A stretch of 64,000 nt of DNA from Moniliella sp. 'wahieum' (lineage: Eukaryota). This document shows, piece by piece, positions 2,290-63,300 of this stretch. The notes below the pieces were generated by a model. That model saw only the letters and a list, made by a program, of their open reading frames with translations, searched no databases and was not told where the DNA came from. The stretch lies in assembly GCA_003971905.1 (NCBI GenBank), contig RSEE01000009.1, forward strand, positions 930,001-994,000. Reading direction: 5' to 3'. Each line of letters opens with the position of its first letter. Position 1 is the stretch's first letter. The translations under genes and the position numbers were made by a program.

Positions 2290-2530
2290 TTGCTGAGAGA
2301 TGAAGGATGAAGCTTGAAGGCCCATCGACGCGCTCACCAGAAAAGCAGGTGATCCAAACGCGTGACCCGCGTGACGCGTGACTGGTGACCGGCCGGTGAC
2401 CGGCGGTGACCACAGCAATGATTAATCGATTAATGAGCCAACGAGCGTGATCGAACGTTGGCGTTGATGCATGATGCATGATGCATGATGGTTGGATCCG
2501 CTGGCAGGCTGACCAGTGACCGGTGACTCC
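2290..2530. repeat. Heptamer-palindrome cluster upstream of HRQ1
   Basis: CGTGACG-CGTGACT-GGTGACC at 2370-2390, AATGATT, GTTGATG-(CATGATG)x3 at 2463-2490, AGTGACC-GGTGACT. Confidence 0.85.
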
Positions 2531-2644
2531 GATTAAACCACCTCCTCGCTTTTTGTGTCCACCTCCCCATCTCTGAACCCGCGTGCTCACTGACCAGCCT
2601 TGCCCTTCCCCTCCTCCCCCTCCTCCCCCTCCTCCCCCCTCTCG

Positions 2645-5600
2645 ATGAGCGACCAACACCGCCCATCTGCAAGGCGAAGCCCATTCGTAGGGCGACCATC
2701 TACGGTCAGACCCCACCTTCCCACTGTCCGCTACCCGCGGCACCCTTCGCGGCTACCACCACGCCTGTACCATCGGCATCCCCAGGGCCAAGCCAGCTCC
2801 GGCCTCCAGCCACTTCAGTCGATCGAGTGCACCAAGACCGAGCCGTCGTCCGCCCTCCATACCTACTCCTCGCCCCTCTGCCTCTTATTCTTCGTCCCGC
2901 ACCCTCTTTGACGCTGTGGTTGTGGCATCTCCTCCCTCTGGCTCCAAACGGACCAGGTCGCCCTCTCCTTCTGCACCCCATGAGAGCGACGATGAACCAA
3001 CTCTCTCAGGTGTACGCCAAGTTCTTCTATCCCCAAGCAGGAGAAAAGCTGTGCCTCATGGGTCTGCCCCTAACAAGCGCCTGTCCGTCTTCACCGTCTC
3101 CCAAGCCCTCACCAAATCCAGCACTGCCTTTACTCGGCCTGCACCAGTATCCGAGACACGAAAACACGAGATTCATCAGCCTGGGGACCTTCGAGCGTGA
3201 TGAAATCCATGGTGAACTTTGGAAAGTACCGTGGCAACATCCCTGATTTTGATGCTCCAGTAACTCCGCCGGGCGTTCGGAAGAGGGCAACATTGAGATG
3301 GAGCAGAGCGCAAACAAGGTGCCCGTCTGACGTCTCCGACCTCCCTCTTCCTCGCCCTCCTCCTATCCATCCTGGGTCTCGTGCACCAGCCTTGAAACCT
3401 ATTCCTGCATCTGTGGTGCCGGGATCGACATGGCCACCCCATTTCGTCCGGCTCGAACAGACCTTCCGGGCGGTAGCCATTGTTTCCTCCTTTGTGGGTG
3501 CTCACAAACACATTGTGTTATCTTTCCAACTCCTTCGCTCTTCGACTGAGAAATTGATCAAGCGGTACGTTGGACCATCCTGCTGGGGTTTGTGGCATTG
3601 TGTGGTTAACAACTCTCACCAGCCCCCTTGAGGTTGTTGATCTGGCTCAGATCAAATCGCTGTGCCCGGACATGGTTGACTTTGCTTATGCCAAGACCGG
3701 AGACGTGTCATCGCACCTGTTCGATAGCGCAGAAAGGGGGAGAAGTGCCGATTCAAAAGAACTCGATGATGCCTATGCTGTGGCCGCTTTGCGGGAACAG
3801 GGTGAAGAGGATACGGGCGATGGCGGGCAAGGATCTACTGCTGCTGCTGAGGACGACTATATTCTGATTTTTTCCTTCAAGGACGGAGAACAGTCGGCGC
3901 CCAAAGCTACTTCCACTGGCAGGTTTGAAAATTATCGCAAGCAAGCTGCCTTTCGAGCTGCTCAGGGCGACGGCAAATTCTTGCAGGGTACACCCCGGAC
4001 CTATCGGCAGCCGAAACGCAGCAGCTCATAGTGAAACGGAACACCAAGTTCTCGCAAGCCATTCGGGAACTGCTGGCCGCTTGCGCTGAGGAGGGTAAGG
4101 AGAACCCTGTTCAGCTGTTACTCGATGCAGCTGCTGATCACGTTCCCGTCCATCCCAACCTTGGTAAAGGAGGAGAGGACGGGGGGGTATTGTCCGGTCG
4201 GGACCGCAAGGCATGGCTGGACCATATCCTCCTACATCCAGAGCAGCGCCCCAGTTTGGGAGAGATCATCACTGAGCTCACCAATGCGGAAGACTACCAG
4301 GACCAAATTGTCCCGGTGGACTCAAGACAGTCCCAGCTCGAGACCCCAAATATGGGAGTCCCCAAAAGGCATTGTCGGAGGATGTGCAGGACCTCTTGTC
4401 TGACTCGGGTATCGAACATCTCTACACCCACCAGGCACATGCCTTGGACGCTTTCGCAGATGGAAAGAATGTTGTGGTGGCTACCCCCACCTCGTCGGGA
4501 AAGTCACTCATCTACCAGCTGCCGTTGCTCGATAGCTTGATTCATGGTGCCACTGCCTTCTTTATTTTCCCCACCAAAGCATTGGCGCAGGACCAGTTGC
4601 GCTCCCTCTCTACTCTTTTACGACGTCATCCTGGTCGAGGGGGAGCTACCAGTGGTGGCTACCTACGATGGAGGACACCCCAACCCAAGAACGCAAATTC
4701 CTCCGCAAAAATGCTCAAGTCATTTTTACCAACGTCGACATGCTCCACCAAGCTATTTTACCTGGCGAAGAGCTTTGGAGACGGTTCCTCACCAACTTGA
4801 GGTTAATTGTGCTGGACGAGCTACATGTGTACGATGGTCTCTTTGGTGCGCATGCTGCTCTCGTGTTTCGCCGACTGCGCCGCATCTGCTCTGCTTTGGG
4901 TAATGAGAATATCCAGTTCATCAGTTCGTCTGCTACTATCTCGGACCCGCGCTCACATGTCGAACTTGCTGGCCTTGGACCCCGATACCGTGACCCCCAT
5001 CCTTGGAGACCTCGACGGCTCACCCCAGGCGGAAAAACACTGGGTCTTGTGGAACCCCCCTCTCCTCGACGAGACGGATCCATCCCAGGGTCGAGCATCG
5101 TCTTATACCGAAGTGACTCGCATCTTTATTCATCTCCTCGAACGAGGCGCTCGCACCATGATCTTTACTCGGGTGCGGCGGCAGGCCGAGATTCTCCTCC
5201 GCCAGATACGGGAGACGTTGCTACTCTCCAATCGGGCCGACCTGGTGGATCGGGTGGCGGCGTACAGGGTGGGTATAGCCCAGAAGACCGCCGCAGGATC
5301 GAGCAATCCATGTTCACCGGCGACCTTCTTGGGATTATTTCTACCACGGCACTTGAACTGGGGATCGACATTGGTCACCTGGATGCAGTCATCATGCACG
5401 GCTTCCCTTACACCGTGTCGTCCCTGCGTCAAATGGCGGGCCGTGCCGGACGAAGGCAGCAGGGACAGTGCTGCCTTCTTGGTGGCTGAGGCTTTCCCTG
5501 TGGACCAACATTATATGCGCAATCCCCATCTTCTCTTTGACGCCCCCGCCACGCCCATGCGTATCCAGTACGACAATGACTTTCTACTCGAGTGTCATCT

Positions 5601-6854
5601 CCAATGCGCAGCATATGAGATGCCTGTCGATCCTACCACAGATGAGGAGTTCTTCGGTCCCCAGATCCATCGCTTAGCAGAGACGCGACTGGTCAAGGGT
5701 ACTGGTGAACGATCTGCTTTCTACTTTCCTGCCGAGGGTTGGCTGGACAACCCGTCGGGTCAAGTTGCGCTCCGGGGTGGAGGGGAGCCCAAATACACCT
5801 ATGTGGATGTGGGTTCGACGCGGGTACTGGAGGAGGTGGAGATGAGTCGTTCCATCTTTGAGGCGTTTGAAGGAGCGATCTTCATGCACCAGGGCCAATC
5901 GTTCTTATGTGTGCATGTAGACCATGACAAGCGCATTGTGCAAATGAGCAAGTCGGACGCTCGTTACCACACTCGTTCACGCGATCATACCGACATTGAC
6001 GCCGTTCAGACTCAACGCGTACGCTCTCTCACTAAAGATCGAGCCTACTATGGCGTTGTTAGGGTCGAATCAAGGGTATGGGGCTACTACAAAGTGGACA
6101 GGCAAGCCCATATCCTAGACGCTGTCGAGGTCGACACGCCCCCTTATGTTCGCCAGCCGCGGGATGTGGATTGATGTCCCAACTTGGCTTTTGGATGCTT
6201 TGGTCAAACAGGGCATCAACGTTGCAGCAGCTATCCACTCTGCCGAGCACGCGCTGCTCAGTCTTACTCCCCTCTTTAGCCTGGCTTCTGCTGGGGATGT
6301 TCTGACGGACTGCAAATTGCCCGAGCGGGAGCTTAGTACGTCGGGGCCAACAGCGCGCCGAAGACCGGCCCGATTGCTTTGGTACGACGCCCAGATGGTC
6401 TCCAAGGACTCTCGCACCCAGCGAGGAGCGGGACTGTGCTACAAAGCGTTTGAGCATCTCGAAACGCTGGTTAGCATCGCGATGACGGTGATTGAGCAAT
6501 GTTCCTGTGCGGAAGGGTGTATGGCATGTATTCACAGTGATACATGTGCTCATGGTAACTTGGTTTTCAGCAAGGTGGGTGCCTTGGCTATACTTCGTGC
6601 CATCCGTGGCATCAAGCCGTTCGATGAGCGCTTGGAACACCAAGGCGAACAAGGTCGAGCCACCTCTTTGCTCGGAGGCCTCTCTGTCCCAGACTGTACG
6701 GCCCGCCAGCCCCGTGCCGGCTTCCCACACCTTGCCTGTCGAGACGTTTCAGGAGACGCTTCCTCCCGATTTGTCTCTTCCCTCTCAGCGCCCTCGCTCC
6801 CCTGTTGCTACCCCGGGAGCATCTTTGGTGTATGAAGAAGTAGAGGATGAATAA
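2645..6854 (+). CDS. HRQ1: RecQ4-like DEAD/DEAH helicase Hrq1 with C-terminal Zn-binding DUF1998/MrfA domain
   Basis: LYTHQA, ATPTSSGKS (motif I), FPTKALAQDQ, VLDELHVY (motif II), ALELGIDIG, QMAGRAGRR (motif VI), HLQCAAYE, CSCAEGCMAC. N-terminal WPPHFVRLEQTFRA. GTACGT intron near 3565-3622. Several frameshifts. Confidence 0.93.
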
Positions 6855-6947
6855 TATGGCATCCTTCCCTTTTCCTTCCTTTTGGGAGCTACTTGCCATC
6901 AACACCATCTCCTTCTGAGGTTGAACATGGCAAATGATCCAACAATC

Positions 6948-7791
6948 TCAAGATGAGGGCGGACCCCATCCCAGAATACGTTCGCCCCTTTTGACAGCTC
7001 GTGTCCAGATGCGCAGCCACGAGTAGTTCCACGCGGGTCGAAGGTTGGTGACAAGATCGTAAATCAGGGCACGATTGTATGCCCGATGCCGCTCTGTGTT
7101 GGCGCCAAGCCACGCTTGATAGAAATCGCTCAGAGGCACAGGTGGTGGACGAGTATCCGGGGAAGAGCTGGTAGAAGGAAGGAGAGCAGGCGATGCGGAT
7201 GCAGCAAGTTCAGGGGAAACGGAAACGTCGTCGCCTGCACCCGCCTCGAGAGCCAGGGTAGACTGCTGGACAAGTTGAGCTGGTGGCGCAGGTGGGTTGA
7301 CCTGGAAATCGTGCAAGTCACGCTCAAAGCGAGCGTTGTTGTCTCGCCAAAAACGTTGGTGGAAGGCATCAGAATGAACCCGGCGTAATACTGATTGCAT
7401 CTCGGCCACCTCGAGACGCTGGACCAACTCGCGGTAGTACCATGAATGGGGTACTTGGCGGAGGCGCAACACCCCTGCCAGGCCACTCCAGAATGGATGT
7501 TGGGAGCGGTCTGGTCAGGGGCGAGAATGGAGAACTCCGCTAGGCTGTAGGGGTGCGATTTGCGCTTGTCGGTGTCTCCTTCAGATGCGGACGAGGGAGC
7601 CTGAACTTCAAACGCCGAGCCATATCGCACAGGACGCAAGTTGCTGACAGGATCGGGGGGACCAACGATGTCGGCACCGGGCGCGGCAGCTAGATGACGG
7701 CGACTGCGACGTGGAGGATGGTAAACCGTGCACGAAGAGTGATGGAACGTGCTCCCTCCACTGGTCTCGGTAACGGCAGCGGAGGACGCAT
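6948..7791 (-). CDS. COA8: COA8/APOPT1 family mitochondrial protein
   Basis: DIVGPPDPVSNLRPVRY, FHQRFWRDNNARF, LSDFYQAWL..HRAYN. Arg-rich N-terminus. Start uncertain. Confidence 0.8.
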
Positions 7792-8033
7792 GACCGAACG
7801 GTGATGGTGGTGTTGGTAATCCACAGTGGCTATGGCAGCGGGTGCCGAGCAACAGACCTGGGTCAATTCCGCAGCGGCGCCTTCCAAGTTCCGCTCTGCC
7901 GCTGCCCGTCCCAAAGCCAGGTTAAATGGAACTGGGGCATTTACGGCCTTGAAGCTTGGCATCTATAAGACGCCGTCACAAGGGACTGTCTCGGCTCAGT
8001 GACAAGGAGGAAAGGGTATCGTATAACTGCACA

Positions 8034-8475
8034 TCACTCAAGGATGACACGGACGATGAGAGAACAACCAGTACATGGGGCCAAATCATTCCCATCCGCC
8101 AACCGGGTCGCCGTAGTGGTGTATGCCCACCGCAGCGGCATGGGTGCGTAAAGATGGTCTCAGCATCATCCACATCCTCGTTGGCGTCAAAAGCATCAAG
8201 GTCGAGCGATTCCCTTGCTTTTTGGGCATTTTGAGCATTTGCAACTAGTGTCCGTGTTGTGGCCAGCATGGAATCGTATTCGTTCCGGGCTACGGGGTCG
8301 CACAGAATCTCATAGGCCTCGTTAATGCGGCGAATGTGATCCTCAGAGGCAACGCTCTTGTCGGGGTGATGAATCTTGGCCAAGGCCAGGTAGGATGCAC
8401 GGATCTCCTTGTGAGAGGCTCCTGGGGCACACCAAGAACGTCATAGTGCGTTGGCCCCGTCGTGGCGGGCGCCAT
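8034..8475 (-). CDS. DPH4: Diphthamide biosynthesis protein 4 (J-domain plus CSL zinc finger)
   Basis: THYDVLGV, HHPDK, INEAYEIL, PCRCGG, and after a frameshift APCTGCSLIVRV-stop. Confidence 0.9.
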
Positions 8476-8589
8476 CTCCAAGCAGACGAACTGGGAGAAA
8501 CTTGGCTCTAAGCAGGGTGTCGTGGTGCGGGGCAAATACGTACCTCTCGCTCGCATCCCACCTGGGAGTCAAATTGGATGCAAATATGG

Positions 8590-8663
8590 AACCCTAGCTG
8601 TCCGCAATATTTATCACACTGCGGCAACCTCACTCAGGGGCACTGTAGTTGTAACTAACCCTA
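8590..8663. promoter_or_regulatory. Two AACCCTA telobox/Tbf1-like motifs in the DPH4-RPL3 divergent promoter
   Basis: AACCCTA at 8590-8596 and 8657-8663 within a ~280 bp head-to-head interval. Confidence 0.4.
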
Positions 8664-8753
8664 TTGTTTTTTTATGCCCCCTTTCTGGCCCTCGGCCCTT
8701 TCAACAACTGCCCAGCGGCCCCTTTGTTACGCTTCCGTCGACCACCAAGCACA

Positions 8754-9928
8754 ATGTCCCACTGCAAGTACGAGCACCCCCGTCACGGTAGCACGGCCTT
8801 CCTGCCCCGGAAGCGTGCTGCGCACCCGCGCGGCCGCGTGCGTGCCTTCCCCAAGGACGACCCTAAGAAGCCCGTCCACCTCACTGCTTCCTTGGCTACA
8901 AGGCTGGCATGACCCACATTGTGCGTGAGCTCGAGCGCCCTGGGTCGAAGATGCACAAGAAGGAGATTGTCGAGTCCGCTACCGTTGTTGAGGCTCCTCC
9001 TCTTGTTGTTGTTGGTGCCGTCGGCTACATTGAGACGCCCAAGGGTCTCCGCGCCCTGACCACTGTCTGGGCTGAGCACCTGTCCGAGGAGGTCAAGCGT
9101 CGCTTCTACAAGAACTGGTACCGCTCCAAGCGCAAGGCGTTCACTACCTACGCCAAGAAGTACTCTGAGGATGGCGGTGCTTCTATCAGCAAGGAGCTTG
9201 AGCGTATCCGCAAGTACTGCACGGTCGTCCGTGTGCTTGCCCACACTCAGCTCTCCAAGACTGGTCTGAAGCAGAAGAAGGCGCACCTGATGGAGATCCA
9301 GGTCAACGGTGGCTCGATCTCGGACAAGGTTGACTTCGCCAAGGAGCACTTTGAGAAGACGGTCGACCTCAAGTCGGTCTTCGCCGAGAACGAGATTGTT
9401 GACGTCATCTCGATCACCAAGGGTCACGGTAACGAGGGTGTCGTTGCTCGTTGGGGTGTCAAGAAGCTTCCTCGCAAGACCCACCGTGGTCTCCGCAAGG
9501 TTGCCTGCATTGGTGCGTGGCACCCGGCTAACGTGCGCTTCACTGTCGCCCGTGCTGGTCAGGACGGCTACCACCACCGTACTGAGCTCAACAAGAAGAT
9601 CTACCGGATCGCCACTGGCTCGGAGGAGGGCTCGGGCTCGACTGAGTTCGATGCCACCAAGAAGGCCATCACCCCCATGGGTGGCTTCCCTCACTACGGT
9701 ATTGTCAACTCGGACTTTGTCCTGCTCAAGGGCTCCATCCCCGGTACCAAGAAACGTGTGGTGACCCTGCGTAAGTCGATGGCTCACCACACCTCGCGCG
9801 CTGCGCTCGAGAATGTGGCTCTCAAGTGGATCGACACCTCGTCGAAGCACGGCCACGGTCAGTTCCAGACCCGCGAGGAGGCCGACGCTTTCCTCGGCCC
9901 CCGCAAGCTCAAGGCTGTCTTCGAGTAA
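8754..9928 (+). CDS. RPL3: 60S ribosomal protein L3 (uL3), intronless
   Basis: [67 protein letters not shown]. Strong codon bias. One apparent 1-nt deletion near 8890. Confidence 0.98.
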
Positions 9929-10474
9929 ACGGTCTCTCTTATGTGGCTTTACAAACCTTTCACAAAATATGGTGGATGCTGTCACCTCGTATGCCTCCAT
10001 GTTTGCATGGCGAATCTCATTGTCGTTGCCACCATAGCCCTTCATGCGTCGCTAGTCTCTTTTCAGGCTTACAGCTTGTCCACTACAGACCCGGATGAAT
10101 GTGAGATCTACTGATTCAAACCAGTGGTCTTTGGGAGCAGACTCGAAGATCATAAGAGGGGAACGATGTTTCAACCGCTCTCGGCGCAAGGGCGCGATCC
10201 TTAAAAAAGACGGCATGCTAACAGTCCGACCCGCGGCCTCCTCGAGTAACTAGTAATCCCTAGAGGTACGAATTGGCAGTGTCCCGCCTTACTCTTCCTA
10301 CCAAGCGAGGGCCTGAGTTATACACGGCTCCCAATCGATTAATATAATGGTGGTAGGTGCCCGTACGTGAAGTTAATTTGACTGAGTTAAGCTAGTTATC
10401 GGAGAAGAGCGCCCCAAACCAACTGTCCTCCGTTCAAGCTTCAAGATCAAACAACCCTGGTAGTGGTGGATGGG

Positions 10475-10528
10475 GGAACGGTGGCGACGGTGGCGACGAT
10501 GGGACGGTGGACGATGAAACGGTGACCC
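10475..10528. repeat. Degenerate 9-mer (ACGGTGGCG) array, copy 1
   Basis: ggaacggtggcgacggtggcgacgatgggacggtggacgatgaaacggtgaccc. Confidence 0.7.
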
Positions 10529-10784
10529 TCTAGTCGCTTAATAAATCGAAGCGAAAAACGCTCGGCTCGGCATACAGAAATGCGTCACACTCAGAAGCCT
10601 CCAACAGCACAGGTTTGTATCACGCTTCATGCGTCACGCGTCACGGGCCTAACTAGCGGTGTGAACCAGAGGCCAAGGAGATGGCATTGCAGAGAAGGGG
10701 GACTAAAAACCTGTGGGCTGTGAGAAACTCCGAAGTCGGAAGCATGTGGAAGGCCCGATGAAACGCGCCGGACGGCCACGTGCC

Positions 10785-12635
10785 ACTGAAGCTTGAAGCT
10801 TGTAGCTTGAAGCTTGAAGCTCTTGAGGGTTTGAAGCTATTAGCTTGAAGCTTGAAGATTGAAGGTATAGCTCTTGAAGCTTGAAGGCCGATGGGCTCGG
10901 GACTGTTGCTCTGGACCATTGGTGTTATAGTCAACAGCTTGAAGGCAGAGAGGTACAGAATTAAGGGTGCAGACCAAGAGGTTACACGTTACATGTTACA
11001 GAAGGTACCAGTAGACCAGGTACGACCAGAGCTATTTATTGGGCCACAACGATTGAGGGCAGAAGAACAATGCAACGGCGACAGGGTTGTGGGTTGAACT
11101 CAATATTCAACGTCGTTCTTCAACGTCCAACGTTGAGCTGATAACGTCGAGAGAGACGTTGAGACGTTGAGGCCGGAAATCCTCAGAGCAATATTAGGCC
11201 TTAGGGTTCCAGTCCGGCACGGACCTCAAGTGAATCACAGTGACGCTCGCGTCGCTAATATATTCTCCGTCGTGGTTCGCTCGCTCGCTCCCTCCTCTAG
11301 TCCCACGTCACCTGTCTCATTCAAGCTCCAAGAGTGCTCTGGCTCACCACTGGGCCTTCTCCTGTAAGACCGGAGGAACCCAAGGGATTGGGTGAAGAAC
11401 CTCTGGAAATGTAGAGCATGCAATCGCGATGGTGGTGGTTCCGGTCTAAGCCTTGTGCCACACCTAGAGACAGGGGTCAGACAAGCCTGAGTGTACACGT
11501 GGAGGCTTCGGAGGACAAATCAGGGGTGAAGGGTGATGAGGCGCCTTGGCCTAAGTACGGGACCACGGGTCCCAACATCTCCCGCTTCTCTGAAGCTTCA
11601 GAAGGTTGAAGCTTGAAGCTTGAAGCTAGCGAAGGAAAAAAACAGCTTTTTGAGCAACTACGGGGGATGACTATATTCAGGGGCCTCAGGCCCCTCAGCG
11701 CCTCAGCGCCTCAGCCCTCAGACTTCAGCGCTAAAGCTTCAAGGACCTCAGCGCTTCAGCCTGTCCGAGCTCCCAGCTGTCTTCAAAAGCTTCAAGCTCT
11801 TCAAACCTGCCTAACGCGTTGTGTGTGACGCACTGAGACGGACTGTTGGGGATCGCGACGGCGGCCTGAGGCTTCCCTGAGGCCTGAGGAGGGTTTGACG
11901 ATCTGAGAGCCACTCTATATCATTTGCAAAGCTTGTAAGGCATGTTACCGGTTACGTGTTATGCATGTTACAGGTTATACTCCTGCAATCATAATAGCAT
12001 TTCTAACGCTAAGACAAGAAGAAAACGCTGCGCCTAAACAACAGTAATAAGCTCGCTCAGCCTCAGCACTCACCTCTGGCGTGTGTTGTACGCGGGTTAC
12101 TCGGTTACTAGTATAAGATTGCGGCCGCTCTAGTAGAGAGTACTGCACTCTGGCACAAAGTTGCTGAGTAGCTAGTAACTAGTAACTAGTGCCTGAGGAG
12201 CTGAGGCAGACTGAGGCGGAACGCTGAGAGGCTGAGTGCCTATCCATCCGTCTAGTGAGTGTTGGTACTGAGTAGCTCGGCTTGAAGTGTGCAGTAAAGC
12301 TAGTAACTAGTAACTAGTAACTAATAGCTGTTTGCTACAGGCATAGTCAAGTAGTAGTGACCCAGCGACTGCTATAGTAGCTGCTATGGCTGGCACTAGC
12401 TATACCTGCGCATGAAGCTCTTGAAGCGTGATAGTGCTGCATGATGCCTGATGCTTCACACGAAGAAGGCTGCAAAGCTTGAAACTTGAAGCTTGCTGGA
12501 GCTGGATGACCGGTGAGATCTGAGAGGTGGGAGGATGACCGATCGATGGGCGTCGAAGGGCGTGCGAATCACGCGTCACGCTGCCAATCACGCAGGTATC
12601 ACATGGCGCATGTGACATGTGACGTGCTGTCACAA
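10785..12635. repeat. Large composite field of heptamer-palindrome arrays
   Basis: About a dozen CTTGAAG-like units at 10785-10886, (N)GTTACA x3 at 10980-11000, CCTCAGN run at 11684-11760, TGTTACC-GGTTACG at 11943, (AGTAACT)x3 at 12302-12322, TGTGACA at 12611. Confidence 0.88.
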
Positions 12636-12969
12636 TCCTCGGGACCGGTAAAAGCAGGCCGCGCCGACCAGCCAGGCCATGCGTCGCAGGCCAGCCCAGG
12701 GCCACGTCTGGGGCTGTGCCGTGCGTGCTGGCGCGGCAGCAGCGCGCGGCAGCCCGCCTGGCCGAGGCCCACGCCGGCCACAGCCGCCGCCAACCGCCAT
12801 CGCGCGCCCAGCATCCCGCCCAGCATCCTGCGACCAGCCACCAGCAGCAGACCGCTGCAGCCCCCCGCCCCGCCGCACCACTCGCTCCCCCTGCCGCCGC
12901 CCATCGCGCCCGCGCCATCGCCCCCGTCTCTCCGTGCTGCCACCCTGCACGCCTGGCCGCATCGCCCTG

Positions 12970-15782
12970 ATGCACGCCTTAGCCGAGCCCGACGCCGAGC
13001 CCGACGCCATGGCCGCCAGTGCCGCCGCAGCCTCGCGCAGCGCCAGTCTCTGGCAGCGCCGCCACGCCGCCCGCGCCCCGCCGCTCCAGCTCGCCTCCGC
13101 GTCGGCGTCAGCTGCTGCGGCGGCGCGCGACGGCGCCCATGCCCGCCCCTGCCATGTCGGGTGTCGTCTGCGTCGGCCAAGTCGGCTGCGTCTTCTGCCG
13201 CTGCCGCTGCGGCCCGTGCCGCTCGCCCCCCGCCCACCCCCTCCGCCCTCCCCTCGCCGCCCCTTCCCCCGCGCACGCACCCCTCCCCCGCAGGCAGCCA
13301 CGGGCAGCGCGCTGCCCTGGGCGCCTTTGCACCCGGCTCCGCTGTCTGGGGCCCACCCGCCTGGGACAGTCTCCCCGCCGCCTCCGCCGCCGCCTCGCCA
13401 ACCCCGCGCTGCCCGCGCCCTCGCCTGCCCCCACCCTGCCCACCCCGAGCGCAAGCCACTGCCCTCCCCGACCTGCCCACCGCCCGCATGGCCCTCAGCC
13501 ACCCCACCTCCACCTCCTCCCCCCCCATCCACAGCTCCTCCTCCCCTACGTCTCCCCGCCCCTGGCCCCGTCCCCCTCCCGCCGCCGCGGTCCCAGTCGA
13601 CACTGCGCGCCCCCCTCACTGCCGCACCCGGCCCTCCTGGCCACGACGAACCCGCTGTCTCCTTTCGTCGTCTTCTGCTGCTGTTACCGCGCCCCTCCGT
13701 TCTGCCCCCATCGTCGCCAGCCGCCAGCATCATGCCTCCTCCCATGCGTCGTTACCTCCCGCCACGATGGTCCAACCCCAGCAACCGCAGTCCCCACCAC
13801 CTTGCTCGGGCCGCCCCCCACAGCTTGTTCGCTCTGCCCACACCGCCCATTTGGCCACCCAAGTCGCGCTCAGTGCCCTGTCGATCGACGATGATGATGA
13901 TGACCCAGAGGCCCACCCTCTGCTGATCCTGATCTCTCCGCCGCATCCAGCATATGGGGCCCACGCCAGCCGTTATGCCCCGGCATCCACCAGCTCCGAA
14001 GGGCGGGGGGGCATGGGGTACAGTTCTCGCTCCCACTTGTATGACGAGTACGACACCTGAAGAGCCGTCTCATCACGGCCTCGGGGTTGGAGAGGGGGAA
14101 TACGACTATGGCTACCGTTCTCATCCCAGTGACCCAGCGCCTCGGGCCCGAACGGAGAAGAGCGGGCACGACGCAAGGGCCGAGCGCGCATGAGCCAGGA
14201 AAAACGGGCGTCGCTTGGCTCGCCGAAGGGAGCGCGAACGGGAGGCGGCCCAAGCCGCTGGGGGGGTACTCTGTCTCTTGGCCTGCCCAGTACCAGCACT
14301 GGTGGCGGTTCCAGCGTCACGAGCTCGTCCAATGCGTCGTATGCCTCAGCGCACAGTCGCCTCAGTCGACCTTCAAGTTTGGGTCTGCTTACAACGGGCA
14401 CGAGCAGCGCCAATGGTCTTCCTCCATCCTCACTCTACATCTCCATGGACTGCTGCCCCTAGAGCGGCGGAGTAGAATCGGGGTTGAGGTCAGACTTGTA
14501 TTATGGAACTCCTTCGTCTCTAGGTCCCAATATGCTGGGCTTGGATACGTCGGTTGGCTCGCAGGCCATCTCTGCTCTGCGGCCCACACGCTAGTCACGA
14601 GGCGGGGCGATCAGGTTACTTATCTCTTGGAGGGAACCTGGCCTGCGCCCCACTCGCACTTCCAGCCCATCTCAACCTACCCCGGTCCCAGAGCTCGTTG
14701 CCCACACCCCAGCAGCACCTTCTTCAGCTCCCCTCTCATGCCCCTGGGAGTGGAAAGCCCGGATGGTCCGGAGCAAACGGGCACGCGCCTCATTCTCCAC
14801 GCCTACCCCAGCCGCTCCCTCCTGCATCAACTGCGCCTACTTCGACTGCACCTCCTCCCCGCTCGGCGCCAGCGCACATGTCGACATTCCCCTTCCCTCC
14901 CTCTGAGGCGCCTCCACTCCCGCTCCCACCGCATTCATCATACTCGTCTATGAGCACCGCCCATACGCCCCCTCAACGAACCTTGCCGATGCCTGGCCCG
15001 ACTAGCACACCCGCCCCGGTACAGGGCCAGCCAGAAATCGTGACCCATGGGCCGCGTCTCGACCCCCCTCCTGGATCGCTTCTCCCTCGGTGGTTCTAAT
15101 AGCTTGGACGCCGGACAATCTGCCGCCTCAGCGTCTGCCGCTGGCAGTCAAAGTCAACTGGGTACCCAGGCTTCTCTCCATCGGTTCCCTTCGACGCCCC
15201 ACTCTTCTTGTCCACCCATACCGCCCTCAGGTCTAGGGGAAGGGGATTGGAGGCAGCATGCCGTTTCCAAACACCCTTCCATTTCTCGGCCTCCCTCCCT
15301 CTCTTCGCTTGGTTTGCCTCACAAACAAAATTCGCGCAGCATCTCTTCTCCAGCCACGGCAGAGCAGCAGCAGTAGCCACTTCGGTGGCGGTTGGCCCCC
15401 CTGCCCGTGGCCCCGAAAGCGGGCGAGGCCCTTTTCGTCCTGATCCTGCTTCGGCGAGTTCTTACTACTACCCTCCCTACCGTACTACTACTTCAGGTGC
15501 AGGTGCCGCGGCCAGCCATCTCCGCTTCCTTCGCCCCACAACCCTTCCCTTGCTCTCCCGCCTCGGCCCGGACTGGTGGGACCGCCGCTATCAACATCCT
15601 CGTCGCACTCCTCTCGCCACTCGTACTCGGCGAGCCGGGCGCGCGGCCGATCTGGCACTCTGAACGGACCTGAGAACCATCAGGAAGCGTTAGAGCAAGC
15701 GTTGGCCGCTGCCTATGCCGCCGGTCTCGCTGCTGCACGAGGTCAACAAATACCAGCGGACCAAGGCGCTCCGTGGCGCTAA
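12970..15782 (+). CDS. Pro/Ser/Ala-rich low-complexity protein of unknown function
   Basis: Very GC-rich overlapping ORFs. Likely start MHALAEPDAEPDAM, internal HLATQVALSALSIDDDDDD, end ALEQALAAAYAAGLAAARGQQIPADQGAPWR-stop followed by a pyrimidine-rich UTR. Confidence 0.55.
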
Positions 15783-16171
15783 CTTTTCTCCTCTCCTCTC
15801 CTTCCTTTCCTCTCCTTTCCCTCGCCTATTCGCGTTTCTGTTCGTTTCGTCCGGTTTTCCCCTCGCATGCGTTCCCGTCGGCCTGCTCCCACGACCGGTC
15901 CCTGGTGGCTCGGTACGCGCTTTGCTTCCCCTTCCCCTTTCCCTGCTCTTGGCCTCGGGCCGACTAGGACCGACGAGGCGGACCTGTACCCGTGTATCCC
16001 TCCCACCTTTTTCCCCTCGACCCAACCATCTCCCGCATACTCCAGTGGGACTTACCTGTGTCTTCATTTTTGTCCCTGCGCTCCTCTGTGCCCGCGTGGC
16101 TTATAGTACTAAAGTAATGCCTCCATGCGCAGCGTAGTAACTAGTGAATAGTGACCTTGACTTGTTCAGGG

Positions 16172-16214
16172 CGGCTTTGGCTTTGGCTTTGGCTTTGGCT
16201 TTGGCTTTGGCTTG
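16172..16214. repeat. (GGCTTT)n hexanucleotide microsatellite
   Basis: About 7 tandem units visible. Confidence 0.9.
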
Positions 16215-17166
16215 GATGCTGACGCCACTGGTGCCCTGCTTGGATGGGCTAGGGCCACCGTGAGATGGGCAACTGGGGCGGCAGAGGGGGGGGGCACAAC
16301 GCTCGGCGGTGGTAGAGTATCCGCCTCGGCTCGTTGAATTTTGCTCGTACTATAACCGCAGGCAAGGAGAGGACGACGAGATCCGTATGGGTTCGTAGCA
16401 GTAGTGACCCAGCGGGCGACCGGAGAGTAGAAAAGAGGGGAAGAGCCTGAGATGAATAAGCTAGTTGAACGAGGAGATGGGTTACGCATACCGTTCTTGC
16501 CGCTATAGGAGGAGAGGATGCGGCGGAGATGCCAAAAAATGCAGTTAGGAGAGAGGAGAGGAGTCGGGAGGGGAAGAAGAACGGGGAAAAGATTCCATGG
16601 CTCTAAGGTTATAACCTTGCGCATGTTTGATTCTTTTATTAGTGGGTCGACAGGAAACGAGTGAATGAACTGATGGACGAAACCCCGATCCTGAGAGGCC
16701 TGATGTGAGTGACGGTGGAGGGGCCCAATACTCTGGCAGAGCCGGTGCTTGATAAAACATGAAAACTACCCATTGCCAAAACGGTGGGGAGCTGTGGAGA
16801 TAGGGGCAGGGAGCCCTTCCAATGCAGATACGCCCTTCATGAAGAGGAGGGCTCGTAGGCAATTTCAAGCCCCATCCAAAACGGCGGGTATTAGGCGGTA
16901 CAAAATAACCGGGTAGATCGGCAGTGAAAGAGGCGTGCCGAATCGAGTGAAAGAGGGAACAAACGTTCTGCCGAGCCAAAAAAAGGGAGCGACCTAGGTG
17001 CTGGGGGGAGGCGGAGAGGCTCGACACTGACACTAGCACAAACCCGCAGGCGGCAGCCAAGACGCTGGGTGGGGCACACCAGTCGCCACTGGCTGTGGGG
17101 CGCGGAGGTGCAGCAGGTGCTAACCCCCCGAGCAGCCGGCTGGTCCCGGCACGGCGGCAACAAGGG

Positions 17167-17528: not shown

Positions 17529-17799
17529 CAGGCTGCGCCCCGCAGGCACCCGAGCAGCGCGTTCCAATCTCCGCTCTGGGCAGCCGCCTGTTGGGACCCC
17601 ACTGTGCTCCCTGTGGTCATCAATCATCACCATGGGCCAGCGTACCGACTGCGCTCGCATGCTCCCGGCTACACCCGCCCCTGGCAGCCGGGTAGCAGAG
17701 GCTGGGGCGGATATATAGCCCTGCTCCATCCTCCCCCCGTCCCTCCTTCCCCTCCAGCCTCCTTCACCCCCCCCCCCCCCCCCCCCCCTCCGCACCCAT

Positions 17800-45693: not shown

Positions 45694-48823
<3,130 letters not shown>

Positions 48824-49109: not shown

Positions 49110-50700
49110 GTTGACGTTGAACGTTGACGGATGAACAGCTGGACGACGCAGCTGAGCGGCTGAGCGCAGCTGGCCCCCCATGTGCCGCCCCAGCCAGCCC
49201 GCCCAGGCCAGCACTGTCCTCCATGCATGTCCTCTCGCCCCACCCGCGCTCCCGCCCGCACCAGCCGGCTGTCCGCCGCGCCCCCGCCCGGCGCCAGTGT
49301 GCCGCCGCGGCAGTAGCCCGAATTGCCGGCCGAGAAGCCCACTGCAGGCAACCCTGGCCGCACCCCCAGTGCGCCCACGGTGCACTAGGCCACATGGCGC
49401 GTGGCACACCATCCGCTGCGCCACTGGGCGCACTACTCATAGTACTCAGACTGCGTCCTGACTGAGCGCTTAACTAAGCACCACGCATGGAGCCACTGAG
49501 CACTGAGCAACGAGCTGCTCCTACATCAGCGCACCACCCGCACACACTCGCCTGGTGCGCCTGCACATGCTGCACGTGCACGGGGACGAACTTGCTCAAG
49601 CTTCAAGCTGGTTGCGTCACCGCGTCACCCAGCAGACAACGTCATCGCGTCATCGAGTCTTCTCATCCATCTCGATCACTCGGCCTGGTAGTCTCTGGCC
49701 GCAACACTGGCACGCGCCTTGTTACAGCGTCCTCTTTCTTAGCGGCTCGTGTGCATTGGGCATACCGTCCCCGCCAGCCAACCTCGCCCCCACTACCGCC
49801 GTCTCCTCTCCATGTGCTAAAACGCGGGGCACCGATGCATCTGAGGACGACCGAGCCAGATCGAGCCCCACGGCCCTGTCACCATGCGTGTACGAGGGGG
49901 TACCGCTGGTACCGCTAACCGGCTAAGCCTTAGCTCGCGGAAACAGCGGGGACCGCCTACTCTGGAGTGGAGGAGCGCCTAGCTTGCTCTGTTGTCCTAC
50001 TGGAGAGCTCGCACTACGCAGATCATCGTATCGATTATCGATTATCGATCGATTAATCAATCACACGCGCAATGCCAAGCGCCGAATAGTGCGCCTGTAG
50101 ACTAGGAGCGCTGAGGAACGGAGGTAGTCAGATCGAAGTCAAATCGCAGACCAGCATACGAAGAGAACCAAGCATTGCGCATCATGCATCAAGCTCAACA
50201 GATGAGCGAGCGTTACAAATAAACACGCCAGTTTCGACCCACGTCACGCGCCACAGGTCACCCTTGTCCTCCATGTTTGCGAGCTTCCGTTGAGCGCTGA
50301 GCAAAAACCAAAAGTCAAACACAGAGCTTGGGTTCGCAGATTCCCGATTTAGGCCATCAAGTGCATCAAGAACCGACGAGACGTCCCAGCGGTACTGTGG
50401 ACCGAGTTGAACTCGTTGTTGGCGTGTGCATGTGACGCGCGTGGCGCGTGACGTCACGATGCACGACCCTGGTTGTGGAGTTATAGACGCGTGCGCATCC
50501 ACTAGTCACTCTCTCGTCACACTGTAGTGAAGAATATCGCATGGATACTATAGCCATCAGATCTCAGAATCGTCCCCTTGGCGATTCGGGCAGAGACGAT
50601 ATGGATGCACGAATGATAGGCGCCGGGTGTGACCTTCTCGCTCACCTCTCTAAAGCCACTGCATCCTCAACGATCATCGATCATCGATATCGATCATCAA
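49110..50700. repeat. Scattered heptamer-palindrome arrays upstream of SRPK
   Basis: GTTGAAC, GCTGAGC, (ACTGAGC)x2, GCTCAAG-CTTCAAG, (GATTATC)x2 at 50033-50046, (GATCATC)x2 at 50672-50685. Confidence 0.8.
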
Positions 50701-53362: not shown

Positions 53363-53525
53363 CGTGTGTGGTGGGGGCAGTGAGCGGTTCGCGTGGAGTA
53401 TGAAGAGGAGAAGAAGGGGGAGAGGGGAGGGAGGGGGGGGGGGGGGAGACGGCGAGGGCGAAGGTGAAGGTGGTGGTGAGTATAGGCAGTCGCGCACTGC
53501 AAATGCTCTGCTTGCCCCCAAAGCC

Positions 53526-53562: not shown

Positions 53563-53673
53563 TCCCCGCACTTTCCGGCACAACCCGGGCAGGTGCATGC
53601 CGGTGCCTGGATTAGATAAGAGGGAGTAGCCCGCAGCTGGAATAGCAGCCATACCGAATCGAAAAGTAGTAGG

Positions 53674-53694
53674 CGTGACGCGTGACGCGTGAGA
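53674..53694. repeat. Heptamer-palindrome array (CGTGACG)x2-CGTGAGA
   Basis: Directly visible upstream of PDK. Confidence 0.85.
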
Positions 53695-53799
53695 GGGCGG
53701 GAGACGCCAGGAAAGTGTTTAAACATTCATTTATCTCACCGGTTCTGATCGATGATTGGGATGATCGGACGGCGTTTTGCTGCCTGTAACAAAAAAATG

Positions 53800-53891
53800 T
53801 TCCCCAACCGGGAGTCGAACCCGGGTCTTCACGGACCAGCTCAGCGGAGGAGCTTGAAAGCGTGACATCATAGCCGTTGGACCATTGAGGA
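53800..53891 (-). tRNA. tRNA-Glu (TTC) with 20-nt intron at 53835-53854
   Basis: Acceptor TCCTCAA/TTGGGGA, anticodon arm TCACG-CTTTCA^C-CGTGA, T-arm CCGGGTTCGACTCCCGG, T7 Pol III terminator at 53791-53797. Confidence 0.95.
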
Positions 53892-58936: not shown

Positions 58937-60390
58937 CTGAATCTGAGCGGCTGAGCGCTGAGCCTCAGCGCTCAGTGTATCCTGCACGGGGCAGGCTGAG
59001 TAACCGAGTGCGCTGCTGCCCGGGCGCTCGGACAACAGTGTGAGCATTGCACGTACTGTGCTAGCGCCAGACGGGCAACGTACGTAACGCGTAACCGGGT
59101 AACCCTGTTTAACCACCCTTGGCGTTGCACACAGCCCACGCGCTTACCGCACGGGGAGTGCCATGCGTCACACACCCAGCCGCTGTCTGTGTAGTGCGGC
59201 GTCCTGGCTGCGTCCGCCTGCTGCCGCCCAGTGCCCAGCGCCACGGGCGGCTGCCACCCTCGCATGCACCGGTTTGCGTGCTGCCGCGCCACAGCAGCAG
59301 CGCACGCAAACAGAAGAGGCCTGGTGCAGCATGTAGACAGCCAAGCACCCACCCGCACGCACCGCGCCGCCCTCCCACCCAGCCACCCTCCCCGCTCACC
59401 AGCCGCCCTGCGCCTCCGTCCAATCGAAGCCTGCAGCATCCGGCCAGTCTGGGCCAGTGCACCCTGCCCACCGCGCCCATCCCGATCCGGGCCCTGTTGA
59501 CACCCTGCCGGCACAGCAGCAGTGTCCAGCCCCAGTAAGCCCCAGTAGGCTGGGGCTGGTACCGGGGAAGAATAACCGGCAACCGGTGACCGGTGACCGA
59601 GGGGTGGTATATGTCCTGGCATCTAGATACCGCAAGTAACGTGGCCCTGGAGGCATCTTGGATTCAATATTCAATCTCCAGAGCCTTGAGCGCTTCAGCG
59701 CACTCAGCCGGAAGAACCTGCGTGTCGTCCTCTGGCCCGCGTACCCCCTCCCGAGTCTTCGCTACTGAAATTACTGAAACCAGCCGCCACGATCGCCAGT
59801 CGCAGACATCGATCAGGATTGCATATTGCTTTGCTGCATATTGCATTGACCGCATGCAAATGCCTTACGTAGCGCGTGGCGCCTTACGCGTTACGCCCTG
59901 CGGTTGGTAATCGACGCTGCCCTTGACCTCTCGTTTCAACTGAAGCTCCACCGTCGTAGCATGCGACAAGAACCCATTGGCAGAGTGGGAACCGGGAACC
60001 AGCAGTCGATAATCGGTCGTCTAACGTTTATTGATTATCGAGCTAGCTAGTAACTAGTAACTAGTAGCACAGTACTTCCGTGTCACAAGCCACATATCAC
60101 TATCACACACTACGTCTTCCGAGGTATTGGCTCGTCACGCGTCACGCATCACGCGTCACTCGCGCCATAGCTCACGCGCTCTGGGAGGATCACCGAATCA
60201 CTGTCACTAGTGTCACTAGCACTAGTCACTAGGTCAGGTGTCACTGGTTCCACGAGTTGTGAGAACGTACCCAAAGGCTTTGCGGCGTTAACGTTTAACG
60301 TTTAACATTTAACGTTTGCCCTTCGGTGGTTACTTATTGCAAGACCGGGTACCGGATACCGGGGTTACCGGTTACCCGCGGTTACCTACT
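58937..60390. repeat. Heptamer-palindrome field upstream of SREBP
   Basis: (GCTGAGC)x2, CGTAACG-CGTAACC, (GGTGACC)x2 at 59585, (ATTCAAT)x2 at 59662, (AGTAACT)x2 at 60049, CGTCACG-type x4 at 60133-60160, GTTTAAC-type x4 at 60286-60313, GGTTACC x3. Confidence 0.88.
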
Positions 60391-60879
60391 GGTTGTCGCT
60401 CCCATGGCCACGTCACTTGTCGTTTCAAATTTTACGATTCAAGGTGAATTCCAACGGCTCAAATTTGAAAGGCCTGTAAAGCTTGTAAAGCGCCAACGCT
60501 TCCAAATCGAAAGGCCCACGTGCTATGGAGTGCGGGGGTCCCTACGGGCTGATTCAGCTGTGGAGCAACCATCAGCTTCAAGCTTCAGAGAGGCGCGAAC
60601 AAGGAAGGTAAAGTAGTGGGCCCCAAAAGGTTTTAAGCACTTCTTCAAGGAAGGAGACAGGAGACAGAGAGGAGACAGAAGACAGAGAGGGGAGATAATT
60701 GCGAATAGGAGGAGTACCAGCAGAACCATTCCTGTCTATAACCACACAACAATCATTAAGCGCGAGAGCGTCGAAATACGGTCCATACATGTGCTTAGGA
60801 TCACGAGGCGATCGCCACTTTCCACCGCCCACGCCTCCTAAACCGTCAGCAAGGCCGGCAGCGTCAGACTCTGTCGCAC

Positions 60880-61830
60880 GACCGGTTGTTCAAGGTGTAC
60901 TATCGATCTGGGTCGAAGAATGACGGGGATACTACTGTTGCTGATGACGTATTCCGTCACTCTGACCTCTCTTCCACGGCTCTAGCTCTTCCGTGGCTGT
61001 GCTTCAGACTTTGTATGGGAGCTTTCGGCCCGTGCTCGAGCTCATACCCAGTTAGTCCGATCCACCGTTGGGCGCGCGCTTGGAGTCCGACGGGATTAAC
61101 ACCGCATTCGCGAGACTTGGTGCCCCCTGTAGACCCACGTTGGGCCGCCGCGGCCTCCTCTCTCCCCAGCTCTTAAGGTTCGCGGTGGCTGTGGGGGCTT
61201 GTGAGCGGATCTATGTCCCTCATAATGCCCCTCTCCGGGCAGCCATCCTTTTGCAGGCCCGCGACTCAGCGCCGTAAGGACGTAAAGCATCAGGCGTAAC
61301 AAGACGACTAGGTGTACGGTCGCACTACTGACTGCCCCCATTTCAAGGTCTGTCAACTCACTTTTGACGATGGAGTACATTACGATGCGAATTCCTGATC
61401 GGTGTGGGAAACAGGTTGAGCAAGATGATGCACTTTTCATCCGTTTGCTCACGCGAAGGACACGGTGCTGTGACTAGCTCACCAGTCTGTCCACAACGTC
61501 TTCCGCTACCATATGGCCTGCCGCGCGACTTGTGTGATCTCAGACCGTGGTCTCACCTTCACGAGCCACTTTTGGCGAGCCCTCCGGTTCAGGTGACTTG
61601 GGCATCAACCCCAGGATCGTAAGTACAGCGTATCATACATCACCCCCAGTTGAACAGACGACAGACAGAGAGTGACCAGGATATTTTCGTTGCTACGGGA
61701 TGAGCAGCAGTGTATAACTGGGTTGATCTTCTCCCCACGGCCGAGTGCTTACAACTCATCCCCCAACTCCAGTAGCACAGGCGCATTGCCCCCGTTTCTT
61801 TGTGTACGGTTACCCTCCCCGATAGCGGGG
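60880..61830 (+). mobile_element. Decayed Ty3/Gypsy pol remnant (RNase H end plus integrase)
   Basis: Collinear fragments YYRSGSKN..VADD, RIYVPHNAPLRAAILLQARDS, YDA..NRLSKMMHF, YGLPRD/ISDRGLTFTSHFWRAL, STAYH, AYNSSPNSSSTG..PF. Many stops and shifts. Confidence 0.85.
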
Positions 61831-63111
61831 GAAGGGGTCAAACTCTTGATGCGTTTCAAATAGTAGTTGTATCCAGCTGAGGCGGGGGGACCCTTCAGGT
61901 TAGAGAAGGGAAAGGCAAGGGTTAGTGAACACATTCGGGAGACCCTTTCCGAGTCGGGAACGAGAGGAAATCAAACTGGCCACAGTGCGCTCCGTCCCGA
62001 TAGTAGACCAAACATGAGGAAGAACATATGATAGTCCCACGGACAAGGGAGGAAGGCCTATCGTCCCCAAAAGGATAAGGGTCGATGGTCGCTTTGTCTA
62101 TCCGCCATGGTAGAACCGTTCCACCATCGTGACTAGGTTGGGGCTGGAACCGAGCTCTGTTAAGATTGGACAAAGCGAAGGGACTTCGATCGGATCAGAT
62201 TGGCGGAAGCCCGTAACGTGATGGGATGTTTAGGTCTCACTTCTAATACGACTGCATCGGGGAGATGGCATCGCTATTAGATCGGCTGACCCATCTAGAA
62301 ACCGAGGCGTACTCGGGACGTGTAGTTGAGCCAGAGCCCCATTGAGCATTTTTGGGAGCAGAACTTTTGTCGAGGTTAGGAAGGTAAGGAAGTCGGCTTT
62401 CTACCCAAACTCTTCGCCGGCCCCTCTTTTTCCGTCGACGGTGACATGAGACACCAGGCTCCTCTCACACAAAGGTGTGTCCTCACGCCTAGAGAAACGG
62501 ATTCCCTTTATATCAAGTGGGCGAGGCGCGGTAGTGTATATACTTCCCTGTCGTCTGAAAACAGGCATGGGTGCATGGGTCTGGACATTATCATCATTAG
62601 TAGATCCGTGTGCCACCACGCGCACAACGAGTGTGGATATATATGAAAGCATCCCCCCCTTTATCCGTGGCGCTATATCTCGGCCCCTCGTTCCACCAAA
62701 CTGTCCGCGGCCATCGCCTTGGCTGTGTCTGGGGCTACACCTTCAGTGCAGACCTTGGGGGCAAAAGCGAAGTAGCGACCTTGGGTCCTCCTGCCAAATA
62801 GGACACCAAGCACCATTACCGGGTGCCCCCTTTTGGTCGATGGTCGATGCTCAGGCATGTTGAACGCTTCATGTGGCCCGTAGGGACTAGGTAGGGACTA
62901 GGGAATGGGCACTGGTTAAAATCTAAAAGTTGATGATTCAATGTTTAACGTTGGGTGAGGCTCTAGGCGCCACACACCAACCCCATGCCCGGCCGACGGA
63001 GGCCGCATCTTAGAGGCACCCCGGCACTGTGGATGGCCGGCGCGGGGTGGCTCGATGACGTCGGGTCTGGGCTCGGGGCCGGCACACAGGCGGGGCGCGA
63101 TGCATGCTGCT

Positions 63112-63300
63112 AGATGATCGATGATCCATCGATGCGCCTCGGCCGTCAGCGCCGGAACACTGGTGCTGTGCTGCGGCTGATGGCGCTTGGATCTCAGCGA
63201 GCTCCGATCCAGATCCAGATGCCTGGTCGATGATCGATGATCGATCATCGACGTCGAGGCGCAGAGGGCGCCACAGACCACAAGGCGGTACCGGTTACTG
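63112..63300. repeat. Heptamer-palindrome cluster
   Basis: (GATGATC)x2-GATCATC at 63229-63249, GATGATC x2 at 63113, GGTTACT. Confidence 0.8.

Follow-up and report, generated by a model that had tools for sequence, protein, structure and literature searches.

Between the genes of a 64,000-nt stretch of contig RSEE01000009.1 (hereafter the window, to which all window counts below refer as one 64-kb stretch) lie many short tandem arrays with a 7-bp unit, raising the questions of whether one rule governs units of such varied sequence, and what process could have produced them. The first question has a clear answer, in that 40 arrays consist of exact head-to-tail copies of a 7-bp odd palindrome of the form xyTNAy'x', where x' and y' are the complements of x and y, and N is any base, compared with 0.2–0.6 such arrays expected. 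An earlier reading of this DNA (the original prediction) had described tandem palindromes of this form between genes; this is borne out, the coordinates it listed are correct, and the observation is confirmed as real and far beyond chance. The answer to the second question is more tentative, and is sought here in the rule itself, in the manner in which the units are copied, and in the distribution of the arrays.

Excess of tandem 7-bp palindromes

Arrays were counted as maximal exact runs of period p and length of at least 2p, such that a period-7 dimer spans at least 14 nt, and Markov models of order 1, 3, and 5, with 40 simulations each, provided the background. Tandem Repeats Finder returned 161 rows for the window, many of period 7, and exact runs of periods 5, 6, 7, 8, and 9 number 85, 67, 63, 17, and 6 respectively. 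The 63 period-7 runs compare with 3.1, 4.0, and 5.3 expected under Markov orders 1, 3, and 5, and 40 of them have a rotation that is a perfect odd palindrome (0.42, 0.20, and 0.60 expected for the same orders), a property present in 10% of random window 7-mers. All 40 possess the T-N-A core. Dimers of palindromic units at other periods number 12 at period 5 (12–16 expected), four at period 6 (~0.5 expected), none at period 8, and one at period 9. In this comparison with a Markov background and with periods 5, 6, 8, and 9, which the original prediction had proposed as a check, period 7 alone shows a strong excess of palindromic TNA units.

Identical yTNAy' 5-mers recur 59 times at a spacing of 7, compared with 1, 3, 13, and 9 times at spacings of 5, 6, 8, and 9, and no spacing-7 peak was found in the window for 5-mers with ANT, GNC, or CNG cores. 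The unit can also be described as a 5-bp odd palindrome yTNAy' plus a self-complementary dinucleotide, which separates the spacing-7 5-mers in 49 of 59 cases (chance being one in four), or as an A....T 6-bp palindrome plus one spacer base. Counted as single words, TNA-centred palindromic 7-mers number 315, compared with 174–188 expected, with those of ANT, GNC, and CNG core at expectation, and A....T hexamer palindromes number 299 compared with 178.5 expected.

The arrays are listed below; each row is an exact period-7 run with a palindromic TNA unit unless otherwise stated.

2368–2382: CGTGACG, 2.1 copies
2382–2411: CCGGTGACCGG, 2.6 copies, an 11-bp odd palindrome with TNA core and the only period-11 case (DNA fold -9.4 kcal/mol, z -3.2)
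2465–2490: CATGATG, 3.7 copies, the longest exact array
10631–10645: CGTCACG, 2.1 copies
10787–10886: CTTGAAG, ~11–14 units, interrupted (exact runs at 10787–10802, 10804–10821, 10842–10857, and 10873–10886)
11606–11627: CTTGAAG, 3.1 copies
11876–11889: CCTGAGG, 2 copies
12172–12190: AGTAACT, 2.7 copies
12300–12323: AGTAACT, 3.4 copies
12609–12623: TGTGACA, 2.1 copies
17167–17180: GCTTAGC, 2 copies
17228–17246: CATCATG, 2.7 copies
20628–20641: CCTGAGG, 2 copies
21140–21154: ACTCAGT, 2.1 copies
24021–24035: GTTAAAC, 2.1 copies
24108–24122: TGTGACA, 2.1 copies
31810–31823: GATCATC, 2 copies, within a degenerate run
32146–32159: CTTCAAG, 2 copies
32317–32372: degenerate AAGCTT plus N array, N being C, G, T, and C across units; includes CTTCGAG, 2.4 copies
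32468–32507: TGTGACA array, exact at 32494–32507
36358–36372: TCTCAGA, 2.1 copies
36393–36410: CCTCAGG, 2.6 copies
39293–39306: CTTGAAG, 2 copies
39538–39551: CCTCAGG, 2 copies
49114–49127: GTTGAAC, 2 copies
49596–49609: CTTCAAG, 2 copies
50029–50049: GATTATC, 3 copies
50671–50688: GATCATC, 2.6 copies
53673–53692: CGTGACG, 2.9 copies
58950–58963: GCTGAGC, 2 copies
59582–59599: GGTGACC, 2.6 copies
59662–59675: ATTCAAT, 2 copies
60047–60066: AGTAACT, 2.9 copies
60133–60147: CGTCACG, 2.1 copies
60288–60306: GTTTAAC, 2.7 copies
60363–60376: GGTTACC, 2 copies
60574–60587: CTTCAAG, 2 copies
63113–63126: GATGATC, 2 copies
63227–63249: GATGATC, 2.7 copies, then GATCATC in phase (N changed to its complement)

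Core, flanks, and base usage

Of the 63 period-7 arrays, 43 can be rotated so that T and A flank the central base, and among these both flank pairs are complementary in 40, one in two, and neither in one, compared with ~12% both, 39% one, and 49% neither among window 7-mers with a TNA rotation. No fully palindromic array around an ANT, GNC, or CNG core occurs in the window, and the 23 non-palindromic period-7 arrays, many with purine-rich low-complexity units, show no enrichment for two of the three pairs. Neither T-N-A alone nor palindromy alone confers anything; only the two combined do so, in the all-or-none manner of an AND gate. Ordinary slippage does not account for this rule, as the original prediction had argued, since period, core, and complementary flanks are jointly required, both flank pairs being complementary in 40 of the 43 TNA arrays.

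Beyond the rule itself there is no further base preference. Exact dimers represent 13 of the 16 possible xy combinations. Fourteen unit types had been claimed earlier, of which AATGATT at 36624 proves to be merely an imperfect dimer (AATGATT-AATGAGC), and the two types that had not been noticed as arrays, TATNATA and TTTNAAA, are each found solely as single copies, seven apiece. The usage of x, y, and N in arrays is that of single-copy sites, with N as G/C to A/T at 21:8 in arrays and 187:68 in singles. Given the 13 xy types and this shared usage, the requirement is one of pairing rather than of base identity, which in turn points to nucleic-acid self-pairing rather than to read-out by a protein. 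Adjoining arrays often have a common 5-mer core and a different outer pair (TCTCAGA beside CCTCAGG, CGTGACG beside GGTGACC), and yTNAy' cores also recur with longer, irregular spacers.

The arrays resemble microsatellites in being exact head-to-tail copies in non-coding DNA, whose units mutate, whose arrays decay, and in which a mutated unit has been propagated. Unlike microsatellites, however, the unit is constrained, with TNA palindromes making up 40 of the 63 arrays and no such rule in the 23 non-palindromic dimers, and the tail of long arrays is missing, with at most 3.7 exact copies apart from the one degenerate array of ~11–14 units at 10787–10886.

Mode of duplication

Where in-phase neighbours have identical arms (33 pairs), they also agree in N in 31 cases and have complementary N in two, with no other combination of N, so the copies are direct rather than inverted. 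Fold-back or hairpin-elongation synthesis, in which N would alternate with its complement, was on these counts rejected as the main process. Of the 16 runs that are exactly 14 nt long, nine duplicate the palindrome and nothing else, the others being mostly visible pieces of longer mutated arrays, and copy number is low, with 29 of the 40 palindromic exact runs spanning 14–16 nt.

The original prediction had offered, as one possible generator, TNA target duplication with hairpin-derived palindromic filler, a proposal that is not supported: x is not fixed by y, and junctions of complement type, typical of hairpin footprints, number 8 compared with ~9.7 expected. A “3+4 filler” model is ruled out by this independence of x from y together with the run lengths. 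Runs of 13 nt with two TNA cores number 16, nine of them of palindromic type, compared with the 40 palindromic runs of at least 14 nt; a “6+1 P-nucleotide” origin would reverse this ratio and was likewise rejected. The mutated unit CTTCGAG, which has a T..G inner pair, has itself been duplicated at 32353–32369, and propagation inside arrays thus needs no perfect double-stranded palindrome.

At neighbouring periods, three period-9 dimers occur when up to one mismatch is allowed, none with a TNA core, and the sole exact period-9 dimer with a palindromic unit, AGTGTCACT, has the core G-T-C and lies within 60197–60240. That segment is a GTCAC stutter with ACTAGT and two copies of TGTCACTAG, followed by CACTAG, TCACTAG, and others. 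The one period-11 array has a TNA core, and some period-8 units, such as GGCCTCAG and GCTGAGCG, are 7-mers lengthened by a single base at the junction.

Genomic setting

The window is intron-rich eukaryote DNA, with Pfam matches to pieces of an HRQ1-type helicase, COA8, a DnaJ protein, ribosomal protein L3, a carnitine acyltransferase, a WD40 protein, a short-chain dehydrogenase, endosulfine, a branched-chain ketoacid dehydrogenase kinase, and an HLH protein. The nearest relative of the L3 (RPL3) reading frame is that of Tilletiaria anomala (81%), followed by other Ustilaginomycotina, and the host is an Ustilaginomycotina-like basidiomycete. The arrays sit between genes, in spacers of every orientation, and conserved exons such as those of RPL3 are without them.

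Searches for a mobile source of the arrays were negative. No transposase family gave a Pfam match among 100 window reading frames scanned, no dispersed repeat family carrying arrays occurs in the 64 kb, and no insert bounded by terminal inverted repeats (TIRs) was found between identical palindromic 7-mers, the one of 436 pairs that passed being array against array (background, 6 of 59,007 pairs). That the DNA around the arrays is unique, and that these searches found no sign of a mobile element, favours an endogenous process. Kyakuja-like CA..TG termini beside identical 7-mers number 20 compared with 4.4 expected, however 19 of the 20 come from CATSATG units, whose own ends are CA and TG, and this candidate was rejected.

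Occurrence in other contigs

A scan of metagenome contigs for three CTTNAAG units gave at least 121 loci, of which the 67 of at least 2 kb were split by open-reading-frame cover and the 54 shorter ones were left out. Among the matches listed, non-seed palindromic arrays have a TNA core in six cases and another core in one in 29 eukaryote-like loci (157 kb), and a TNA core in three and another core in three in 38 prokaryote-like loci (420 kb). In the eukaryote-like loci among the matches listed, the commonest spacings between non-seed TNA 5-mers are 7 (12 cases) and 8 (9 cases), compared with 1–3 cases at other spacings, and other cores are flat. Array density in the metagenome loci is far below that of the window, and since these loci were chosen for holding one array they are supporting evidence rather than a survey.

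The 4-kb contig L067 carries ATTCAAT (3.3 copies), CCTGAGG (2 copies), and CTTCAAG (3 copies), and codes for part of a bleomycin hydrolase, for which Thelephora terrestris supplies the best named relative (64%), suggesting an Agaricomycete-like contig. Further pairs of array types occur in L016, L034, and L041, the last of which encodes eukaryotic proteins, including a choline kinase (ESM Atlas) that is eukaryotic with hints of Basidiomycota. Between the 99.1% identical contigs L040 and L074, a strain pair, there are five indels, none of them of 7 bp and none at the array. The original prediction had guessed, with Ustilago maydis in mind, that the pattern might be lineage-wide; this comes close, in that RPL3 is nearest to Ustilaginomycotina and similar arrays occur in the Agaricomycete-like contig, however the form seen there is weaker.

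In viral contigs, three-unit arrays of CTTNAAG occur at 33 loci, of CTANTAG at 20, and of the non-palindromic CTTNAGA at 18; since CTTNAGA, being non-palindromic, can be matched in either of two strand forms, these viral counts show a moderate preference for palindromic units. The viral contigs show no strong TNA rule, and the strict rule is thus lineage-specific.

Two metagenome contigs contain repeats of their own. In the Bacteroidota-like L046 (4112 nt; DUF5686 / CarboxypepD_reg), spacers hold heptamer arrays of AAGCTAC, CTTCAAG, AGAGATA (5 copies), and TTGAAAG (4.7 copies), with the motif “acagcc” after every one of them; this is a heptamer-repeat system of bacteria and has no relation to the rule in the fungus. 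The eukaryote-like L006 has an GTTCCCCC octamer array at three sites (334–353, 7875–7893, and 13390–13413), each followed by the flank “ctcccctcc”, which suggests a dispersed repeat.

Possible origins of the arrays

We tentatively favour the reading that the arrays are neither genes nor binding sites but scars left by a mutational hotspot, specific to the lineage and acting through a looped-out 7-nt mini-hairpin. Any non-coding xyTNAy'x' 7-mer in this basidiomycete would be prone to exact head-to-tail duplication, with the copies again serving as substrates. During lagging-strand or gap-filling synthesis, seven new bases may peel off the template and fold into the smallest hairpin open to them, in which x-x' and y-y' form Watson-Crick pairs and a compact T-A pair of non-Watson-Crick type closes a loop of the one base N. 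With the unit looped out, the displaced or downstream strand would re-anneal and be ligated, the loop would evade repair, and the next round of replication would fix a +7 duplication, whilst units within arrays would be gained or lost by ordinary out-of-register pairing. A hairpin of three pairs without spare stability would need every pair, which would give the all-or-none rule and make the identity of x and y irrelevant, and a mini-hairpin intermediate would explain both the direct orientation of the copies and the indifference to x, y, and N. The excess of single-copy TNA palindromes would fit decaying arrays.

Two kinds of small DNA hairpin bear on this proposal. In the available portion of PMC13037366, the 7-nt mini-hairpin GCGNAGC consists of a single loop base closed by a sheared G-A pair on a stem of two Watson-Crick pairs; GCGNAGC and GCGNNAGC thus share with the window units their length of 7 nt, two Watson-Crick pairs (40 of 40 units), a closing pair, and a single loop base, however the closing pair is sheared G-A there and T...A here, and that portion describes no role in tandem duplication for the GCGNAGC type. 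An A(syn)-T Hoogsteen pair of 5'-T...A-3' polarity closes 2–3-nt DNA loops in the CTT(T/C)AG hairpins of IS608 type, according to the available portion of bioRxiv 10.1101/2024.12.22.630000. These hairpins match yTNAy' in having a 5'-T...A-3' pair that closes a tiny loop, with a C...G flank and the same polarity, but the loop is of 2–3 nt, and the hairpin is a bacterial transposon end bound by TnpA, with no tandem duplication described in that portion.

Several points weigh against the mini-hairpin. When six period-7 arrays were folded as DNA, in a nearest-neighbour scheme that does not model mini-loops, the only stems obtained had 5 bp and a TNA triloop, with energies (-2.8 to -5.0 kcal/mol) that do not surpass those of shuffled sequence (z +0.2 to -1.3). 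The best-known mini-hairpin type, xyGNAy'x', is not enriched, with one array (GGGAACC) compared with 40 for TNA. Longer TNA palindromes should fold better, yet there are no period-9 TNA arrays and only one of period 11, a near-absence that makes 7 look like a ruler. A one-base DNA loop closed by T-A was not found demonstrated in the literature consulted, and the model would have a single copy become two where there is no flanking homology. Additionally, the similar order of the viral counts for CTTNAAG, CTANTAG, and the control CTTNAGA indicates that DNA physics alone is insufficient and that a lineage-specific factor is needed.

The main rival is a staggered-cut generator, also put forward in the original prediction, which we regard as possible but doubtful. 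A dyad-symmetric transposase, a domesticated transposase, or another nuclease would cut the strands 7 nt apart around N, and duplication would follow by fill-in and rejoining, or by insertion and then clean excision with 7-bp target duplications, each copy becoming a new target. The coincidence of palindrome and duplicated segment in 9 of 16 exact 14-nt runs is in keeping with such cuts, as are exact arrays of at most 3.7 copies, which are expected if one unit is added per event; the length is fixed at 7 and hardly ever 9 or 11, as if measured out by an enzyme, and the invariant T and A beside the dyad look like base-specific contacts. Furthermore, the pattern is strong in fungi and not in viral contigs, which suggests a lineage-specific factor. 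Basidiomycota harbour transposons with 7-bp duplications, namely hAT7 (Pucciniales) and Kyakuja (Laccaria and other Agaricomycotina), as given in the available portion of PMC12730594; their target duplications are likewise direct, of exactly 7 bp, and in the same phylum, however the window is without an element, a TIR, or, among the 100 reading frames scanned, a transposase family, and footprint-type junctions are not enriched. The Cryptococcus KDZ elements have 8-bp or 4–8-bp duplications in the available portions of bioRxiv 10.1101/2024.08.15.608186 and 10.1101/2025.05.19.654958.

The difficulty for the staggered cut lies in the flanks, as a protein cannot easily require complementarity at +/-2 and +/-3 yet accept any base there, and 13 xy types occur. 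Symmetric targets are usual for dimeric transposases, Tn10 being an example of symmetric target preference, and we know of no transposon target preference that takes the form of perfect complementarity of arbitrary bases. TNA-centred non-palindromic 7-mers are not duplicated above background (three arrays), the lack of a transposase family, TIR-bounded insert, or dispersed repeat in the window is hard to square with ~40 footprints, and hAT-type footprints, seen as complement-complement junctions, are not enriched in the window, at 8 compared with ~9.7 expected. Target duplication of 3-bp TNA, as by PIF/Harbinger-type elements, was rejected, the period being 7 and not 3, with TNATNA ~2-fold over expectation and mostly in trinucleotide contexts.

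It is also conceivable, if unlikely, that a dedicated basidiomycete activity recognises self-complementary TNA-centred 7-bp sites by their folding or symmetry, rather than by base identity, and duplicates them exactly. Whether it resided in a domesticated transposase or nuclease or in some special trait of replication or repair, such an activity would continuously make new intergenic DNA out of short palindromes.

A selected cis function, whether as sites for a structure-recognising protein, as transcript hairpins, or as three-frame stop cassettes, is improbable. The concentration of arrays between genes would suit it, as would the enrichment there of single-copy units (149 single TNA palindromes outside long open frames), the old array that keeps its AAGCTT arms while N varies, and the fact that one strand of each TNA reads TAA or TGA, with period 7 placing TNA in all three frames. 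No one sequence-specific factor, however, can have thirteen different sequences as its sites, copy number is mostly two (the 29 of 40 runs of 14–16 nt noted above), the orientation of N is mixed inside one spacer, and arrays occur in every kind of spacer, where they decay freely by point mutation. An assembly or sequencing artefact is most improbable: whilst two sequencing runs (from one study) reach, within 2200–22000, just the stretch at ~6.8–9.9 kb, most of it the RPL3 exon, and a small piece at 21.1 kb, and so cover no array, exact 7-bp duplications limited to TNA palindromes match no known platform error, conserved exons such as RPL3 are array-free, and like arrays occur in the independently assembled contigs L067, L016, L034, and L041.

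Other features of the window

A tRNA on the minus strand at 53800–53891 is matched by Rfam over the full model (45.4 bits) and is not reported by ARAGORN, possibly reflecting an intron; the CGTGACG array at 53673–53692 lies ~110 bp from it. Non-palindromic ACGGTGGCG-like period-9 arrays, 82–88% alike, occur at 10478–10510 and 21397–21488. The top-scoring tandem repeat of the window is GGGGACAGCGTT at 44686–44753 (5.8 copies, 96% matches), which overlaps long minus-strand open frames without a Pfam match, and hexamer arrays are formed by GGGTTT at 46497–46552 (9.3 copies; telomere-like in look, and inside the window) and by GGCTTT at 16173–16213 (6.8 copies). The plus-strand region 12510–16137 is very GC-rich (67% in 12001–14000), with long overlapping open frames on both strands and proline/alanine-type low-complexity repeats, and has no Pfam match. 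A C22 homopolymer at 17767–17788 and a G-rich 31-nt run at 53416–53446 are mutually inverted repeats 35.6 kb apart.

Novelty and significance

The strict sequence rule is apparently undescribed in the literature searched, in which subscription journals are poorly covered, and no description of it was found there under heptanucleotide or palindromic tandem repeats of fungi, Basidiomycota, or Ustilaginomycotina. The bacterial heptamer arrays of Xanthomonas and Nostoc (STRR-like), in the available portion of PMC4692102, are similar in their period of 7, intergenic location, and hairpin potential, however there a non-palindromic array is joined by an inverted array in a bacterial host. In the window each unit is itself a palindrome, arrays are of 2–3 units in a fungus, and reverse-complement copies at spacing 7 number two. 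Microsatellites are usually defined by units of 1–6 bp, and as heptamers fall outside this definition, routine repeat surveys would have missed the rule.

Taken together, the observation is confirmed and its interpretation is in part supported. The strictness of the rule (7 bp, three complementary pairs, and T and A beside the centre) suggests a single specific molecular event with a readable signature. If a dedicated activity were responsible, it would be a structure-guided sequence generator without a described counterpart. If the rule holds genome-wide and across Basidiomycota, it would be a new mutational signature shaping fungal intergenic DNA, would provide abundant markers expected to vary between strains, and would offer a natural experiment on 7-nt T-A-closed mini-hairpins, or on a symmetric nuclease, in living cells.

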